Assembly: GCA_910576205.1 (NCBI GenBank)
Contig: CAJTHL010000010.1
Location: 72,900-136,899 of the forward strand
Direction of reading: 5' to 3'
DNA: 64,000 bases
Source: Clostridia bacterium
Lineage (GTDB): Bacteria > Bacillota > Clostridia > Lachnospirales > Lachnospiraceae
This document shows positions 12,284 to 44,884 of the stretch, one piece after another. The translations under genes were made by a program, and so were the position numbers. The stretch's first letter is position 1. Every line of letters starts with the position of its first letter. The notes under the pieces were generated by a model that had not been told where the DNA came from, ran no database searches, and saw only the letters and a list, made by a program, of their open reading frames with translations.

Positions 12284-12367
12284 GCGGAAGTGTCGGAACT
12301 GGCAGACGAGCAAGACTAAGGATCTTGTGGCATTCGTGCCGTGTGGGTTCAAGTCCCATCTTCCGCA
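12284..12367 (+). tRNA. tRNA-Leu (type II, long variable arm), apparent anticodon AAG; no encoded CCA
   Basis: Cloverleaf folded by eye. Acceptor GCGGAAG/CTTCCGC plus A. D-stem TCG/CGA. Anticodon stem CAAGA/TCTTG with loop CTAAGGA giving anticodon A34-A35-G36. Variable arm TGGCATTCGTGCCGT. T-arm GTGGG-TTCAAGT-CCCAT. Confidence 0.75.
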
Positions 12368-39099: not shown

Positions 39100-39672
39100 T
39101 CAGATCATATCCGGGGAGGTTTCCTGCCCAAAAGCCGGCTGGACGGACACGTTAACCGGCTCCGCTCCGGCTTCCGTAGCTTCCCCGTTTGTTCCTCCTT
39201 CTTCTGGAAGAGCTTCCCTGTCCGTATCTCCTCCCTCTGCCGGAAGAGCTTCCCCGTCCGTATCTCCTCCCTCTGCCGGAAGAGCTTCTCCGTCCGTCTG
39301 CCCTCCCTCTGCCGGAAGAGCCTCTCCGTCCGTCTGCCCGTCGCCCTTGATAAGGCCTTCCTCTGCCGGAAGGGAGCCTTCCTCCGTGATCTCAATCTGA
39401 TCCATCATTCTGGCCAGCATGGTGTCCACGTGGAAATCCTCTGTCATATCCTTCTGGATATGGGCCAGAATCCCGGCGCTGTCCAGGGTATGCAGCTTCA
39501 TGCCCGTATAGTCCAGCAGGACATAGCACAGAAACAGCGCCAGGCTCACATAAAACCGGATGCGGAACCAGGGAATCTCCGAATCCTCCCCGCTTCCTGC
39601 AAAGGAGCCGTATCTCCCCCGCTCCTGCCGCTCCAGCAGCATCTGGCGATACTGACCGGATTCTCTCGCCAT
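39100..39672 (-). CDS. membrane protein with 12-aa tandem repeats (GEALPAEGGxTD)x4
   Basis: 190 aa. One TM; C-terminal acidic repeats encoded by 36-nt tandem DNA repeats. Confidence 0.5.
   Translation of the reverse strand: MARESGQYRQMLLERQERGRYGSFAGSGEDSEIPWFRIRFYVSLALFLCYVLLDYTGMKLHTLDSAGILAHIQKDMTEDFHVDTMLARMMDQIEITEEGSLPAEEGLIKGDGQTDGEALPAEGGQTDGEALPAEGGDTDGEALPAEGGDTDREALPEEGGTNGEATEAGAEPVNVSVQPAFGQETSPDMI
39207..39375. repeat. 36-nt tandem direct repeat x ~4.5 (coding)
   Basis: ggaagagcttccctgtccgtatctcctccctctgcc repeated with a few substitutions. Confidence 0.8.
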
Positions 39673-39726: not shown

Positions 39727-40824
39727 TCAGCGGTTGGCCAGCTCCCTGGTCACGTCCTCCCAGGTGACGCCCCGCTCCACCATCAATACCATGGCATGGT
39801 ACAGAAGATCCGACATCTCGTAACGGATTTCCTCGGGATCCGGATTCTTGGCGGCGATAATCAGCTCCGCCGTCTCCTCCCCCACCTTCTTTAAAATCTT
39901 GTCGATGCCCTTGTCAAAGAGATAGTTGGTGTAGGAGCCCTCCTTGGGATGGGCCTTCCGGTCCGCAATCACGCCATAAACCTTTTCAAAGACCTTTAAG
40001 GGATTTGTGCTGCTAAATTCCCTCCTGGCAATATCCTGGTAAAAACAACTATGGTTTCCTGTGTGGCAGGCCGCCCCGGTCTGGGATACCCTGGCCAGAA
40101 TGGTGTCGTAGTCACAGTCTACCATAAGCTCCTTCACATACTGGTAATGGCCGCTGGTATCCCCCTTGACCCACAGCTCCTGACGGCTTCTGCTCCAGTA
40201 GGTCATTTTCCCTGTCCGGATGGTAGCGTTGTAGGCCTCCTCATTCATATAGGCCACCATAAGCACCTCATCCGTCTTGTAATCCTGCACCACCACGGTT
40301 ACCATGCCGTCGGAATTTAACTTAAACTCCGCCCACTCCATATTGCAGTCGAGGGGCTTTACACACTCGGTAAAGGGCTTCAGCTCATTTAAATATATCA
40401 GCTCGCTGACATACTCCTCCACCAGGGCCGCCGGCGCGCTAACCACATCCGTGCTGTCCACCGCAGCCGCGATTTTCTCCCTGCCAAAACGCCGGGAAAC
40501 CTCCTCTGTCAGGTCAATGTTGGACTGCTTGCCATAGTTCAGAATAGCCTTGGCGCATCCTGTATAGAGAACCTTTTTCACATCCTCCATGCGGTTAATA
40601 TGGCCCCCCGCCTTCACGGGTGTCTCCGCCACACGGACAATTTCTTTCAGCACGCCCATATTCCGCTCGTGCTCCGCGTCGCTGTCAGCCAGATCAAACA
40701 CCAGAATTTCATCGGCCCCGTTATCGCTGAAATATTTCGCCAGAGTAACGGCGTCCCTTCCGTCCTCCGCCTTGCCGTCCGCCAGACGGATACATCCGAT
40801 ATTTTTCGTGTTCATCATAATCAC
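39727..40824 (-). CDS. hisI: HisA/HisF-like N-terminal half barrel fused to bifunctional phosphoribosyl-AMP cyclohydrolase / phosphoribosyl-ATP pyrophosphatase
   Basis: 365 aa. Residues ~1-150 align to HisA/HisF beta1-beta5 ('NIGCIRLADGK', 'LAKYFSDNGADEILVFDL', 'KAGGHINRMEDVKKVL'). Then HisI ('VVVQDYKTDEVLMVAYMNEEAY...GHYQ') and HisE ('EETAELIIAAKN...EMSDLLYHAMVLM'). Confidence 0.75.
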   Translation of the reverse strand: MIMMNTKNIGCIRLADGKAEDGRDAVTLAKYFSDNGADEILVFDLADSDAEHERNMGVLKEIVRVAETPVKAGGHINRMEDVKKVLYTGCAKAILNYGKQSNIDLTEEVSRRFGREKIAAAVDSTDVVSAPAALVEEYVSELIYLNELKPFTECVKPLDCNMEWAEFKLNSDGMVTVVVQDYKTDEVLMVAYMNEEAYNATIRTGKMTYWSRSRQELWVKGDTSGHYQYVKELMVDCDYDTILARVSQTGAACHTGNHSCFYQDIARREFSSTNPLKVFEKVYGVIADRKAHPKEGSYTNYLFDKGIDKILKKVGEETAELIIAAKNPDPEEIRYEMSDLLYHAMVLMVERGVTWEDVTRELANR

Positions 40825-41408
40825 AAACTTCCTTTCGTTGATAATACATCCACAATGCGTGGATCCTTTGCCACCGCCATATCCAGGGCCTTGGCAAAGG
40901 CCTTAAACATTCCCTCTGTCATATGATGGCTGTTGGAGCCGGACAGCATACGAAAATGCAGATTCATGGCCGCCTGGCAGGATACCGCATAGAAAAACTC
41001 CGCCACCATCTGGGTGTCGAAATCTCCCACCTGCGGGCTGGGAAACACTGCGTCAGATACATAATAGGGCCGCCCGGACAAATCCAGGGAGCAGAGCACC
41101 AGGGCTTCATCCATGGGCAGAATGCAGGTTCCAAACCGCACAATGCCCTTTTTATCCCCCACCGCCTCCTTTATGGCCTGCCCCAGCACAATTCCCGTGT
41201 CCTCCACGGTGTGATGGCAATCCACCTGCAGATCCCCCTTTACCCTGCAGGTCAGGTCAAAGAGCCCATGGCGGGCAAATCCATCCAGCATATGGTCAAA
41301 AAAACCAATGCCCGTGGAAATCTCCGCCTTTCCGGCGCCGTCCAGATTAAGGCCCAGGGAAATGTCCGTCTCCTTTGTGGTCCGCGTAATCTGTGCTACT
41401 CTCTCCAT
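40821..41408 (-). CDS. hisB: imidazoleglycerol-phosphate dehydratase
   Basis: 195 aa. 'RTTKETDISLGLNLDG...GFFDHMLDGFARHGLFDL' matches HisB. Confidence 0.9.
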   Translation of the reverse strand: MERVAQITRTTKETDISLGLNLDGAGKAEISTGIGFFDHMLDGFARHGLFDLTCRVKGDLQVDCHHTVEDTGIVLGQAIKEAVGDKKGIVRFGTCILPMDEALVLCSLDLSGRPYYVSDAVFPSPQVGDFDTQMVAEFFYAVSCQAAMNLHFRMLSGSNSHHMTEGMFKAFAKALDMAVAKDPRIVDVLSTKGSL

Positions 41409-41480
41409 CTCTATCCCTCCTATAAAAGTCGCTGCGCGACAGCACTAAAGGGTAAAGTCGCTTCGGCACACCTGTAATGA

Positions 41481-41520
41481 GAGGAACTTTCATTCGAAAG
41501 AACACTCATGAAAGTTCCTC
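41481..41520. repeat. 13-bp perfect inverted repeat (hairpin) in hisD-hisB spacer
   Basis: gaggaactttcat-N14-atgaaagttcctc. Confidence 0.7.
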
Positions 41521-41613
41521 TCGTGTACCTTTGCGGCTTTACCGGCCAGCCAAAAGTATTTTTTATAAATACTTGACATTTCTTAGCTGGACTGTTATAA
41601 ACCGCTGCATTTT

Positions 41614-42906
41614 TTACTCTTCGAAGCGCACCGCAATGGAATTTGCATGGGCCGTAAGCCCCTCCGCCTGGGCAAAAGCCTCCACGTCCGTGTGTACGGC
41701 TTCCAGGGCTTCCCGGGAATAATACACGATGCTGGATTTTTTCACAAAATCGTCCACACTTAGGGGAGAAAAAAACTTTGCCGTCCCGTTGGTGGGCAGA
41801 ATATGGTTGGGGCCCGCAAAATAATCCCCCAAAGGCTCGCTGGCGTATTCCCCCAGGAAAATGGCCCCGGCATTTCTGATCTTTGTCATTACATAGAAGG
41901 GATCTCTTGTGACAATCTCCAGGTGCTCCGAGGCGATCTCGTTTGCCGCGTTGATGGCGTCCTCAAGGCTGTCTGCCACCAGGATATACCCGTAATTTTC
42001 CAGGGATTTTTCCAGAATTCCCCTCCTGGAAAGTTTCTCCACAAAGGCGTCCACCTCCTCTGACACTGCCTGGGCCAGTTCCCGGCTGGTGGTCACCAGA
42101 ATGGCGGAAGCCATCTCGTCATGCTCCGCCTGGGAAAGTAGGTCTGCCGCCACAAAACGGGGATTGGCTGTCTCGTCCGCCAGCACCAGGATTTCGCTGG
42201 GCCCCGCAATGGAGTCAATGCTGACATAGCCAAAAACCGCCTTTTTTGCCAGGGCCACATAGATATTTCCGGGGCCCACAATCTTGTCCACCTTGGGAAC
42301 GCTCTTTGTTCCAAAAGCCAGAGCCCCGATGGCCTGGGCTCCGCCTGCCTTGTACACCTCATCCGCCCCCGCCTCCATGGCCGCTACCAGGGTATTGGGA
42401 TTCACCTTCCCGTCCCTTCCGGGCGGGGTCACCATAACGATCTTTCCCACGCCGGCCACCTTTGCGGGAACAATGTTCATCAAAACGGAGGAGGGATACA
42501 CCGCCTTTCCCCCGGGCACATAGACGCCGCAGGAGGCGATAGGGGTGATTTTCTGTCCAAGCATGGTTCCGTTTTCCCCGCTGTCAAACCAGCTGTAACG
42601 TCTCTGCTTCTCGTGATAGGCCCGGATATTTTTAAGGGCTTTGCGAATCACCTCCAGAAGCTCCGGCTCCACCTGCCGGTAAGCCTCTTCCACCTCCCCG
42701 GGCGTCACCCGCACCGTTTCCGCCGTCACCTGCGCGCCGTCAAAGCGGCTGGTGTAATCAAAAAGGGCCGCGTCCCCCTCTTTCCGTACCCGGTCTACGA
42801 TCTCTGACACCCGGTCCATATATTCCCCGTAATTATTGGGGCTTCTCTTCAAAAGCTGATCCAGCAGGTTTTTCCGGCTGTTCTCCTCCAGCTGTAATAT
42901 CCTCAT
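41614..42906 (-). CDS. hisD: histidinol dehydrogenase
   Basis: 430 aa, HisD-like throughout. Confidence 0.9.
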
Positions 42907-43544
42907 TCTGCCAAAACCTCCTTCAGATTGCGGAGCAATTCCCCGATCCGCTGGTTTTCCATCTTCATGCTCACCTGGTTTACCACCATGCGGGCAGACA
43001 GTGATACGATCTCCTCCAGCACCTGGAGGCCGTTTTCCTTTAAGGTGGAGCCTGTCTCCACAATGTCCACAATCACCTCGGAAAGTCCCACTATGGGCGC
43101 CAGCTCTATGGAGCCGTTCAGCTTGATGATCTCCACAGTCTGATGCCTTTTATTATAGAAGTAATCCTTGGCAATGTTGGGATATTTCGTGGCTACCCGT
43201 ATCAGTTCCTGGTGCCGCAGAAGTTCCCGGGCGGATTCCGGCCCGCACACGCACATGCGGCATTTTCCAAAGCCCAGATCCAGCACTTCGTACATGGAAC
43301 GGCCCTCTTCCAGAATCGTATCCTTGCCCACCACGCCCATGTCCGCGGCGCCATACTCCACATAGGTGGGCACGTCCGGCCCCTTTGCCAGGAAAAACCG
43401 GAGCTTGTGCTCCTCGTTTACAAATATCAGTTTCCGGCTGGCCGGATCTTTCATTTCCTCACAGGTAATGCCTGCCCGCTCAAACACATCCAGGGTTTTC
43501 TTTGCGAGGCGGCCCTTTGTCAGAGCAAAAGTGAGATATCTCAT
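42903..43544 (-). CDS. hisG: ATP phosphoribosyltransferase, short form
   Basis: 213 aa '[26 protein letters not shown]'. Confidence 0.9.
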
Positions 43545-43556
43545 ATGGTATTCCTC

Positions 43557-44753
43557 CTATTCCAGTCCCGCATCTGCTACACAGCGGACATCGTCCACAC
43601 CCATGCGCCGGGCGTAAGAGCGATAGGCCTCCATGGTCTTTCCCTCCTCCATCCGGAGAAGCTCCACCGGCGTGCCCGCCTCCCGCAGGGTCTTTGCCTG
43701 GGCGACGGCTTTAGCCCGCTCCTCCTCCCGGTAGAGAAGCAGCAGGGCCGGCATGGGGGTGGGAATCTTGATATTCTGCCGGTTCAGCGCCATAAGAAGC
43801 TGGTCAACTACGATGGCAAAACCCACGGAGGGAGCATTTTTTCCGAAATGCCCAAGAAGCGTGTCGTAGCGGCCTCCTTTTACCACCGGCTCCCCGGTGC
43901 CGTAGGTGTAGGCCCTGAAGAGAATACCCGTATAATATTTGTATTTGCTTACGATTCCCAGGTCAAAGGAAATATATTTTTCCAGACCGTAAAGCTTCAA
44001 AATTTCATAGAGCTTCGCCAGGCGTTCCACCGCCTCTCTCCCCTCCCGGTTCACCGCCAGGGCGGAGGCTTTTTCCAGAATTTCCCTGGAACCATACATC
44101 TGAGGCAGACAGACCAATGCTTCCTTTACATTCTCCCTTATGGAAAGCCCCGACAGCAGCTCCTCCGCGCCAAAATGATTCTTGTTGGAGATCAGCTCAC
44201 GAAGGGCCAGCTCGTCCTCCTCACCGATCTGCGCCTCCCCAAGAAGGCTCTTAAAGTAACCGATATGGCCCACGCTGATCTGGAACTCCCGAAGTCCCGC
44301 GCTTATCAGGGATTCCGCCACAAGGGCCAGCATTTCCGCGTCCGCGTCCACGGACAATTCCCCCATGCATTCCGCCCCCAGCTGGGTGACCTCCTTTAAG
44401 CGCCCCTGGAAATTGGCGTTGTTGATAAAGGTATTTCCCATATAACACAGGCGGATGGGCATGTCCTCCTCCAGAAAATACCTGGACGCCGCCCGGGCAA
44501 TGGAAGGGGTGATATCCGGCCGCAGTACCAGGGTATTTCCCTCCCTGTCAAAAAACTTGTACAGCTCTCTGGAAGGAACCGTCCCTACCTCCTTGCTGAA
44601 CACGTCAAAAAACTCAAAGGTGGGCGTCTGGATATTCCGGTATCCGTACCGCCGCAGGGTATCGTGCAAAAGCTCCTGAAGGCAAAGCTTTTTCTGACAC
44701 TCCTCATTGTAAATATCCCGCACGCCCTCCGGCGTATGCAAAATCTGTTTCAT
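43557..44753 (-). CDS. hisZ: ATP phosphoribosyltransferase regulatory subunit (HisRS paralogue)
   Basis: Start at MKQILHTPEGVRDIYNEE (RBS GGGAGGAG); class II aaRS-like motifs. Confidence 0.85.
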   Translation of the reverse strand: MKQILHTPEGVRDIYNEECQKKLCLQELLHDTLRRYGYRNIQTPTFEFFDVFSKEVGTVPSRELYKFFDREGNTLVLRPDITPSIARAASRYFLEEDMPIRLCYMGNTFINNANFQGRLKEVTQLGAECMGELSVDADAEMLALVAESLISAGLREFQISVGHIGYFKSLLGEAQIGEEDELALRELISNKNHFGAEELLSGLSIRENVKEALVCLPQMYGSREILEKASALAVNREGREAVERLAKLYEILKLYGLEKYISFDLGIVSKYKYYTGILFRAYTYGTGEPVVKGGRYDTLLGHFGKNAPSVGFAIVVDQLLMALNRQNIKIPTPMPALLLLYREEERAKAVAQAKTLREAGTPVELLRMEEGKTMEAYRSYARRMGVDDVRCVADAGLE

Positions 44754-44855
44754 AAGTCTGCTCCTCCCGCCCGGCCCGCTTCCATTTTCCGGGAAACCGC
44801 CGGCCAAACACGCCTTTTACTTTACTCTGGTAAATTACAAAAGTACAGTGTAACT

Positions 44856-44884
44856 ATTATAGGGCAGGACAGGGAAAAAGTCAA
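44856..44884 (-). promoter_or_regulatory. his operon promoter
   Basis: Minus strand TTGACT-17-TATAAT about 95 nt upstream of hisZ; overlaps recU 3' end. Confidence 0.5.

Follow-up and report, generated by a model that had tools for sequence, protein, structure and literature searches.

A conserved, apparently non-catalytic barrel of HisF origin fused to HisIE in the split histidine operon of a Lachnospiraceae genome

Analysis was done of a 64,000-nt stretch of DNA (hereafter the window) from a Clostridia bacterium of the family Lachnospiraceae (assembly GCA_910576205.1, contig CAJTHL010000010.1). It is the only stretch of the source genome covered here and all coordinates are positions in it. 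The window carries a partial histidine biosynthesis operon in which HisIE bears an additional N-terminal beta/alpha-barrel domain, designated here as F'. We consider it probable that the window shows the split histidine regulon usual in Lachnospiraceae, with nothing broken in it, and that HisIE carries a conserved but catalytically dead accessory barrel which is derived from HisF and has been shortened in the clade of the window.

Five co-oriented his genes were located on the minus strand at 39727-44807 by the list of open reading frames (ORFs) along with Pfam and NCBIfam profiles (Table 1). The partial operon of hisZ, hisG, hisD, hisB and a barrel-bearing hisIE, which a first-pass annotation had proposed from the letters of the window, is thereby borne out. 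The same holds for the HisA/HisF-like N-terminal extension running on into HisI and HisE: Pfam His_biosynth matched residues 15-126 of the fusion (profile positions 17-132 of 228, 69.3 bits, E 4.5e-19), followed by PRA-CH on residues 189-262 and PRA-PH on residues 281-365. The NCBIfam HisIE equivalog NF002747 scored 264.5 bits against a cutoff of 187 over residues 167-365, thus including both domains, and a profile search matched the HisIE structure 6j2l of the PDB with E 1.3e-47. In the HisI/HisE part D234, C235, D236, D238, C251, H252, C258, E314, E315, E318, E329, E330, E334 and D337 are invariant across 119 homologs. HisI has its conserved Cys/His/Asp motifs and HisE its acidic motifs, the catalytic roles of both being taken from literature, and judged by its sequence the HisIE part of the fusion is intact.

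The 4-nt overlap with hisB and the length of 365 aa reported earlier depend on taking the mechanical GTG as the start of the fusion gene. The likelier start is the ATG at 40818, which lies 2 nt past the hisB stop with GGAAG about 10 nt upstream and gives a protein of 363 aa without overlap; gene callers give the same length in the four independent assemblies shown. For hisZ the true start is probably the ATG with the N-terminus MKQILHTPEGVRD, rather than the mechanical TTG at 44807.

The alignment of the barrel with HisA and HisF, which the first-pass annotation had suggested, was carried out, and the profile, HMM and hhalign scores point to a derivation of F' from HisF rather than HisA. In the profile search of the PDB, F' matched HisF-LUCA with 6.5e-23 and Thermotoga maritima HisF with ~3e-18, and its best HisA match was 2.5e-12. 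The N-domains of the long forms of the fusion found in relatives scored 79-92 bits on TIGR00735 (hisF) versus 42-62 bits on TIGR00007 (hisA), and the N-domain of the window scored ~56 bits on both alike (range 54-57). All of these scores are far under the trusted cutoffs, as on TIGR00735 the window form gave 54-56 bits and the long forms 62-92 bits against 294.55, and the window form, having Arg in place of the Asp of strand 1, gave 54-57 bits against 228.95 for TIGR00007; F' is therefore not a bona fide HisF or HisA.

The extent of the barrel was analyzed by alignment and by structure prediction. The profile of the N-domain was aligned by hhalign with T. maritima HisF over residues 1-250 (probability 99.3%), and in the MAFFT alignment the long forms retain counterparts of beta7-alpha7-beta8-alpha8. 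The AlphaFold model of the long form of Konateibacter has eight strands and the strand-1 hairpin of HisF (pLDDT 92, pTM 0.76). That of the window protein (pLDDT 85.7) has strands at residues 7-13, 37-42, 68-71, 90-94, 116-120 and 139-142, making six beta/alpha units, and Foldseek superposed F' on HisF with an rmsd of 2.2-3.5 A over ~120-130 aligned columns. The short form is without ~57 residues, namely beta7 through alpha8, and a closed eight-stranded barrel with two phosphate sites is absent from it. As the long forms align with full HisF and only the short form is without beta7-alpha8, F' is therefore a reduced full barrel and not a primordial half-barrel. Hence the natural fusion proposed in the first-pass annotation stands, being inherited and family-wide, and its interest as a primordial half-barrel does not, because the domain is a degenerated and shortened full-length HisF. 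The assignment of the first ~150 residues to a barrel was likewise right (~145 residues), except that the model reaches beta6 and not only beta1-beta5.

The position of the strand-1 catalytic Asp of HisF (D11) was inspected in 145 fusions. In the 119 close fusions it is occupied by Y (39), P (33), R (31), H (11) and, in the rest, S, F or C, with Asp in 0/119, and in 26 more divergent fusions by F, Y, R, W, S, E, V, L or C and never by Asp. The window protein has R11 there, and D is found in the true HisF sequences that the same search returned. This Asp is thus missing in all 145 fusions checked, which marks F' as a predicted pseudoenzyme. The strand-5 Asp, equivalent to D130, is kept in 75 of the 119 fusions including the window (D121), and the equivalent of D98, which we take to be the HisH-contact residue of HisF, is not conserved among them. 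The GG and S motifs of the C-half phosphate site are absent from the window form, and in the long form this site is degenerate.

The conservation of the domain is uneven along its length. Mean pairwise identity among the 119 fusions is 61% in the N-half, 33-37% in the alpha5-beta6 and beta7-alpha8 regions and 76-86% in HisI and HisE. E78, D79 and N94 are invariant (119/119), and H50 (118/119), G72 (117), G71 (116), D42 and R76 (113 each) and K90 (112) are nearly so; by alignment and models these conserved residues sit where strands 2-4 end and in the loops that follow. The aligned counterparts of G71, G72 and N94 in T. maritima HisF are G80, G81 and N103, in a region which presumably forms the N-half phosphate site of that enzyme. 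Within the short clade the proportions of nonsynonymous (pN) and synonymous (pS) differences in the N-half are 0.12-0.24 and 0.66-0.83 (pN/pS ~0.15-0.33), and in HisI and HisE pN is 0.04-0.13, with pS saturated. This indicates purifying selection on the N-half of F', weaker than on HisIE by a factor of about two to three. By these comparisons the N-half is kept and the C-terminal half is degenerate.

The distribution of the fusion among relatives was surveyed by a species scan with one genome per species and the N-domain alignment as query, of which the best 80 of at least 566 confirmed matches were read; labels of the type L### denote the related loci or contigs and P#### the protein homologs compared. 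Matches to the N-domain were found in at least 566 species genomes, and among the best 80 nearly all are labelled Lachnospiraceae or its genera, including Blautia, Dorea, Mediterraneibacter, Faecalicatena, Kineothrix, Lachnotalea, Konateibacter and Hominiventricola. The order hisZ, hisG, hisD, hisB, barrel-HisIE is kept in 80/80 loci read by tblastn, as far as the contigs extend, with recU upstream of the operon wherever the contig extends to it. No second HisF-like gene was found by tblastn within 10 kb of the fusion in these 80 loci, and the short form occurs in only two of them (L002 and L003). The 120 best protein homologs listed all have PF00977, PF01502 and PF01503, bar one truncated sequence without PF01503, and they fall into two size classes of 355-378 aa (nearly all of the window's clade) and 413-459 aa.

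Identity to the window protein is 67-99% among members of its clade. The HisG and HisD of the window share 80-86% identity with those of L002, the nearest species representative. The exact 363-aa protein of the window is present in seven independent contigs or assemblies, including the metagenome-assembled genome GCA_949743305.1, and the four of them shown share the neighbouring genes. Because the same architecture runs across the family and the identical protein recurs in independent assemblies, the fusion and the operon layout are an inherited family trait and not a strain-specific scar; the comparison with related genomes, also suggested in the first-pass annotation, gave the same hisZGDB-barrel-HisIE order in the loci read.

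As the first-pass annotation had stated, hisC, hisH, hisA and a full hisF were not found in the 64 kb. A tblastn search with the N-domain gave no hisF/hisA paralog of F' elsewhere in the window, and T. maritima queries gave no tblastn match for hisF, hisA or hisH in the window, the HisA query having matched nothing anywhere and hence being uninformative. No aminotransferase, GATase, His_biosynth or PHP domain was detected by Pfam in 20 further size-suitable ORFs of the window.

The place of these genes in related genomes can be followed in the literature. In Additional file 2 of Ashniev et al. (2022, BMC Genomics, PMC9413887) the operon is written hisZGDB(FIE) for ~40 Lachnospiraceae, and these genomes have there two HisF entries, the fused gene and a second gene adjoining HisH, along with HisA and HisC at unrelated positions in nearly all genomes. 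The entries of Clostridium scindens ATCC 35704 are HisF 1165 and 802, HisH 801 and HisA 3365, and those of Faecalicatena fissicatena KCTC 15010 (the strain of L046) are HisF 835 and 1894, HisH 834 and HisA 2113. According to the same table, hisA lies directly upstream of the fused gene in Enterocloster- and Lacrimispora-type genomes, the full hisZGDCBHAF(IE) order is retained in a few Lachnospiraceae, some members of the family are listed as (IE) only, and Eubacterium eligens, Butyrivibrio crossotus and Lachnospira pectinoschiza appear as hisZGDB(AIE) or (AI), their only HisA being the fused gene. The same split is described for Roseburia, where none of hisF-hisH, hisA and hisC is linked to the hisGZDB-EI operon (PMC7478625). 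Among the amino acids only tryptophan is needed by C. scindens ATCC 35704 (PMC12065433); as this species carries the operon without requiring histidine, such an architecture does not stand in the way of histidine synthesis, and the window organism is most likely a histidine prototroph.

The following course of events would account for the present arrangement. The genes form one operon, probably repressed by HisR, in which step 1 falls to HisZ and HisG, steps 2-3 to HisIE, the dehydratase step to HisB and the last two steps to HisD, with hisH-hisF, hisA, hisC and the phosphatase gene presumably located elsewhere in the genome. The ancestral order may have been hisZGD(C)BHAF(IE), with hisF immediately upstream of hisIE. 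In the ancestor of the family hisF and hisIE would have fused, and a separate hisH-hisF pair would have taken over catalysis and made the fused copy redundant. F' would then have lost the strand-1 catalytic Asp and the C-terminal phosphate site, with degeneration of its C-terminal half, and in the window's clade beta7-alpha8 would have been deleted afterwards, leaving the six beta/alpha units. Purifying selection would then maintain F' as an accessory domain of HisIE without catalytic activity.

As to the function of the domain, the conserved face of F' most likely would still bind a phosphorylated metabolite of the pathway or a partner protein, and in this way modulate or couple HisIE; a binding role is favoured because the conserved residues lie on the N-half ligand face. 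Some points weigh against this account as a whole. The binding role is drawn solely from the location of conserved residues, both structures are predictions, and the loss of catalysis is read from an alignment to a T. maritima HisF sequence with a numbering that agrees with the PDB matches. That the window organism has unlinked hisHF, hisA and hisC is deduced from its relatives, and also from how strongly purifying selection acts on the other genes of the operon. In E. eligens, B. crossotus and L. pectinoschiza, either the barrel is a real HisA or the genome is without HisA, so the barrel may supply HisA activity in some lineages.

It is possible, and nearly as likely as binding, that F' is purely structural and binds neither ligand nor partner, HisIE having come to need the N-half of the barrel in order to fold, stay soluble or oligomerise. 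The loss of the catalytic residues and of the second phosphate site fits with this, as do the dispensable closure of the barrel in the short clade, the plain name HisIE given to these proteins by NCBI, and the (IE)-only Lachnospiraceae of the published table, which suggest that the domain can be lost. The invariant residues at strand ends and beta-alpha loops, however, lie on what is the ligand face of TIM barrels, though this face could be an inter-domain interface, and the GG and N remnants of the HisF phosphate site have been joined by new invariant His, Arg, Glu and Asp residues.

A rather unlikely extension of the preferred account is that the conserved N-terminal part is an autonomous functional module, a natural partial HisF barrel, which either pairs with its twin across the HisIE dimer into a composite barrel or works by itself, sensing or tethering a phosphoribosyl intermediate. 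If true, the six-unit form would be a naturally selected sub-barrel, giving evolutionary rather than engineered evidence that beta/alpha barrels consist of separable fragments, and there would be an unrecognised regulatory or channelling layer in the histidine biosynthesis of a major gut-bacterial family.

Less probable again is a functionless relic which decays slowly and is tolerated since clean deletion is rare. The weak conservation of the C-terminal half (33-37% identity), the ~57 residues already gone from the short clade and the catalytic Asp lost in every fusion checked at the D11 position would agree with decay, but an N-half with 61% mean pairwise identity, three invariant residues and another kept in 118/119 would not, nor would a pN/pS of ~0.15-0.33 with saturated synonymous sites and the retention of the domain in at least 566 species genomes.

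An active partial barrel with HisA or HisF activity, for example one pairing across the HisIE dimer so as to give a trifunctional protein, is very improbable. Hocker et al. are said to have reported in 2001 that separated HisF half-barrels can associate. The D130 equivalent is present in the window and in 75/119 fusions, and in three genomes of the published table the barrel is the only listed HisA. Against these stand the strand-1 Asp missing in 145/145 fusions, the C-half phosphate site gone from the window form, the 54-57 bits against cutoffs of 294.55 (HisF) and 228.95 (HisA), and the separate hisF and hisA which nearly all fusion-bearing relatives also have.

The weakest reading, a recent strain-level in-frame deletion of hisH, hisA and part of hisF leaving a scar and a histidine auxotroph, was raised in the first-pass annotation and draws on the canonical Firmicutes order, which puts these three genes between hisB and hisIE exactly where the barrel fragment sits, but it can practically be dismissed in view of the family-wide architecture (80/80 related loci), the identical protein in seven assemblies with a short clade diverging to 67% identity, the purifying selection on the fragment and on all neighbouring his genes, the separate hisH-hisF, hisA and hisC listed in nearly all genomes with the operon, and the histidine prototrophy of C. 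scindens, which has it too.

The known system nearest to the window is the hisZGDB(FIE) operon of Lachnospiraceae in PMC9413887, which agrees with it in gene order, in the barrel fused to HisIE, in the organism family and in the candidate HisR operator upstream of hisZ. It differs in that the barrel is listed there as HisF, with the missing catalytic Asp unmentioned in the text and tables consulted, and in that the window's clade has six instead of eight beta/alpha units and the window has a repeat inserted between hisD and hisB. The hisIE gene itself and the (FI) gene of Clostridium novyi, as given in PMC9413887, are likewise joined from adjacent his genes, hisF and hisI being neighbours in the canonical operon. 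The fused F of C. novyi is, however, the only HisF listed there and presumably active, whereas the fused copy of Lachnospiraceae is redundant and degenerate.

With HisF itself (TIGR00735; T. maritima 1thf and 1gpw) the long forms are homologous over the full length and F' shares the fold beta1-beta5 and, where strands 3 and 4 end, the GG and the N respectively. Unlike HisF, F' is without the D11 equivalent, its C-half phosphate site is degenerate or deleted, its D98 equivalent is unconserved, and it is fused to HisIE and not placed beside hisH. The engineered half-barrels HisF-N and HisF-C, reportedly from Hocker, Sterner and co-workers, are similar to F' as an N-terminal HisF barrel fragment in the form of a folded unit and likewise bear on the modularity of barrels. 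Here F' differs in being natural, of six units rather than four, dead, tethered to another enzyme and a product of full-barrel reduction rather than a precursor.

Database annotation and one comparative-genomics table already record both the layout of the operon and the F-IE fusion. A literature search for a pseudo-HisF domain or an FIE fusion gave nothing beyond the mention by Ashniev et al. Not found described are the nature of the fused barrel as a pseudoenzyme, the conservation of its N-half only and the six-unit truncation in one clade including the window. The data are of use mainly for barrel evolution and for the prediction of auxotrophy, and their interest overall is moderate. Reading the operon as incomplete leads to a false prediction of histidine auxotrophy for many Lachnospiraceae, and counting the fused barrel as a working HisF misleads in genomes that lost the real one. 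HisF is the classic model for the evolution of barrels from half-barrels, and here nature offers a case, spread over a whole family, of a redundant HisF with one half under selection and the other half decaying; in one clade the decaying half has been partly deleted. It also poses the concrete question of what a dead barrel does for HisIE, for which the shortened form is a convenient minimal construct.

Table 1. Features of the histidine operon region (window positions)
Feature	Position	Strand	Basis or remark
Sigma-70-like promoter candidate, TTGACT-17-TATAAT, between recU and hisZ	44856..44884	-	11/12 hexamer positions match; consensus match only
Candidate HisR operator TAATTTACCAGAGTAAAGTA	44818..44837	-	between promoter-like site and hisZ
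hisZ, ATP phosphoribosyltransferase regulatory subunit	43557..44753	-	TIGR00443 317.9 bits vs cutoff 271.65; mechanical ORF extends to 44807
hisG, short-form ATP phosphoribosyltransferase	42903..43544	-	PF01634 E 2.3e-56; TIGR00070 209 bits
hisD, histidinol dehydrogenase	41614..42906	-	PF00815 E 6.8e-181
hisD-hisB spacer	41409-41613		205 nt
Dispersed ~130-nt structured repeat copy, ending in hisB Shine-Dalgarno	41416..41544	-	nhmmer E 2.9e-41; most of the 205-nt spacer
hisB, imidazoleglycerol-phosphate dehydratase (IGPD domain only)	40821..41408	-	PF00475 E 2.6e-65
F'-hisIE fusion gene, 363 aa from ATG 40818	39727..40818	-	mechanical ORF starts at GTG 40824
F' domain (aa 1-145), HisF-derived, predicted catalytically dead barrel remnant, six beta/alpha units	40384..40818	-	
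HisI domain (aa ~161-265), phosphoribosyl-AMP cyclohydrolase	40024..40338	-	PF01502 E 1.8e-35
HisE domain (aa ~276-363), phosphoribosyl-ATP pyrophosphohydrolase	39730..39993	-	PF01503 E 6.7e-23

The spacer between hisD and hisB was analyzed separately. Its length and a perfect hairpin within it were given rightly in the first-pass annotation, the hairpin having 15 bp instead of 13 bp: the central perfect inverted repeat at 41479-41522 has its arms at 41479-41493 and 41508-41522 with a 14-nt loop and is nested in a longer imperfect one. The spacer folds with -76.2 kcal/mol (z = -7.25). Among the relatives, L002 has 40 nt at this junction, L086 has 103 nt of unrelated sequence and L087 has 3 nt, with the repeat absent, and a 52-nt stretch of the spacer recurs upstream of an unrelated gene in L035, where the repeat lies at 836-917. 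A 25-mer of the spacer gave 94 exact matches in 89 metagenome stretches (L088-L176), several per contig and sometimes in tandem. Fifty-four distinct copies were aligned and gave a core of ~130 nt, the ends of which nearly coincide with those of the spacer; about a third of the copies share a further 50 nt upstream. By nhmmer ~210 matches were found in 611 kb, with a single copy in the window.

In most copies with enough downstream sequence (64/88) the end is AGGAGG, after which come a start codon and an ORF of 80 aa or more, and 33 of the 62 distinct evaluable full-length copies sit between two co-oriented ORFs. Compensatory variation was observed in the central hairpin, where one pair is C-G in 29 copies and U-A in 22, and in the terminal hairpin, which occurs as GTCGC/GCGAC, GTTGC/GCAAC, ATCGC/GCGAT and ATTGC/GCAAT. 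Since the relatives are without the spacer element and many copies are dispersed, the hairpin is therefore an inserted repeat which supplies the ribosome-binding site of hisB, and not the rearrangement scar at a former hisC site that had been suspected. The repeat may possibly be a mobile intergenic element or an element for mRNA processing or stability. It resembles the REP, BOX, RUP and Correia elements in being short, multi-copy, hairpin-forming, intergenic and often between co-oriented genes, and differs from them in being oriented with the downstream gene, usually ending in the Shine-Dalgarno of that gene. No Rfam family was found for the spacer, only sub-threshold matches to microRNA hairpins.

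Upstream of hisZ, the pattern TTTA-N6-TAAAGT has its single match in the 64 kb (expected 0.13) inside the candidate operator of Table 1. The palindrome TAATTTACCAGAGTAAAGTA fits the HisR consensus cacTTTAnnnnnnTAAAgtg, published in PMC9413887 and validated in vitro for the HisR of Ruminococcus gnavus, and is a candidate operator on the strength of this fit. Control of the operon by a T-box or an attenuator was considered and rejected, there being no Rfam match at gathering score.

Genes inserted inside the operons of some relatives were considered as displaced his genes and ruled out, as they are unrelated. In several species (L014:7238-8017, L030, L050) hisG and hisD are separated by the gene of a ~260-aa protein that has a hydrophobic segment at its N-terminus. 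Between hisB and the fusion gene there is an ORF which looks EPSP-synthase-like by eye in L063:8693-9988 and a large membrane protein in L033:8305-9990. At L087:1435-4110 hisZ and hisG are fused into one protein of 550 aa, followed by an acyltransferase_3 gene. Two further his fusions from the search of representatives were read by eye, HisA-HisF in P0276 (474 aa) and HisH-HisA-HisF in P0247 (707 aa), both with the HisF catalytic Asp intact.

Directly downstream of the operon in the window, at 39100-39672 on the minus strand, is an ORF of 190 aa with four tandem units of ~12 residues, TDGEALPAEGG(Q/D), and no Pfam match; it follows the operon in the same-species contigs L082-L085 as well, but not in L086 or L087. 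A tRNA at 12284-12367 on the plus strand (49.2 bits) is the sole Rfam match in the window that reaches the gathering score.

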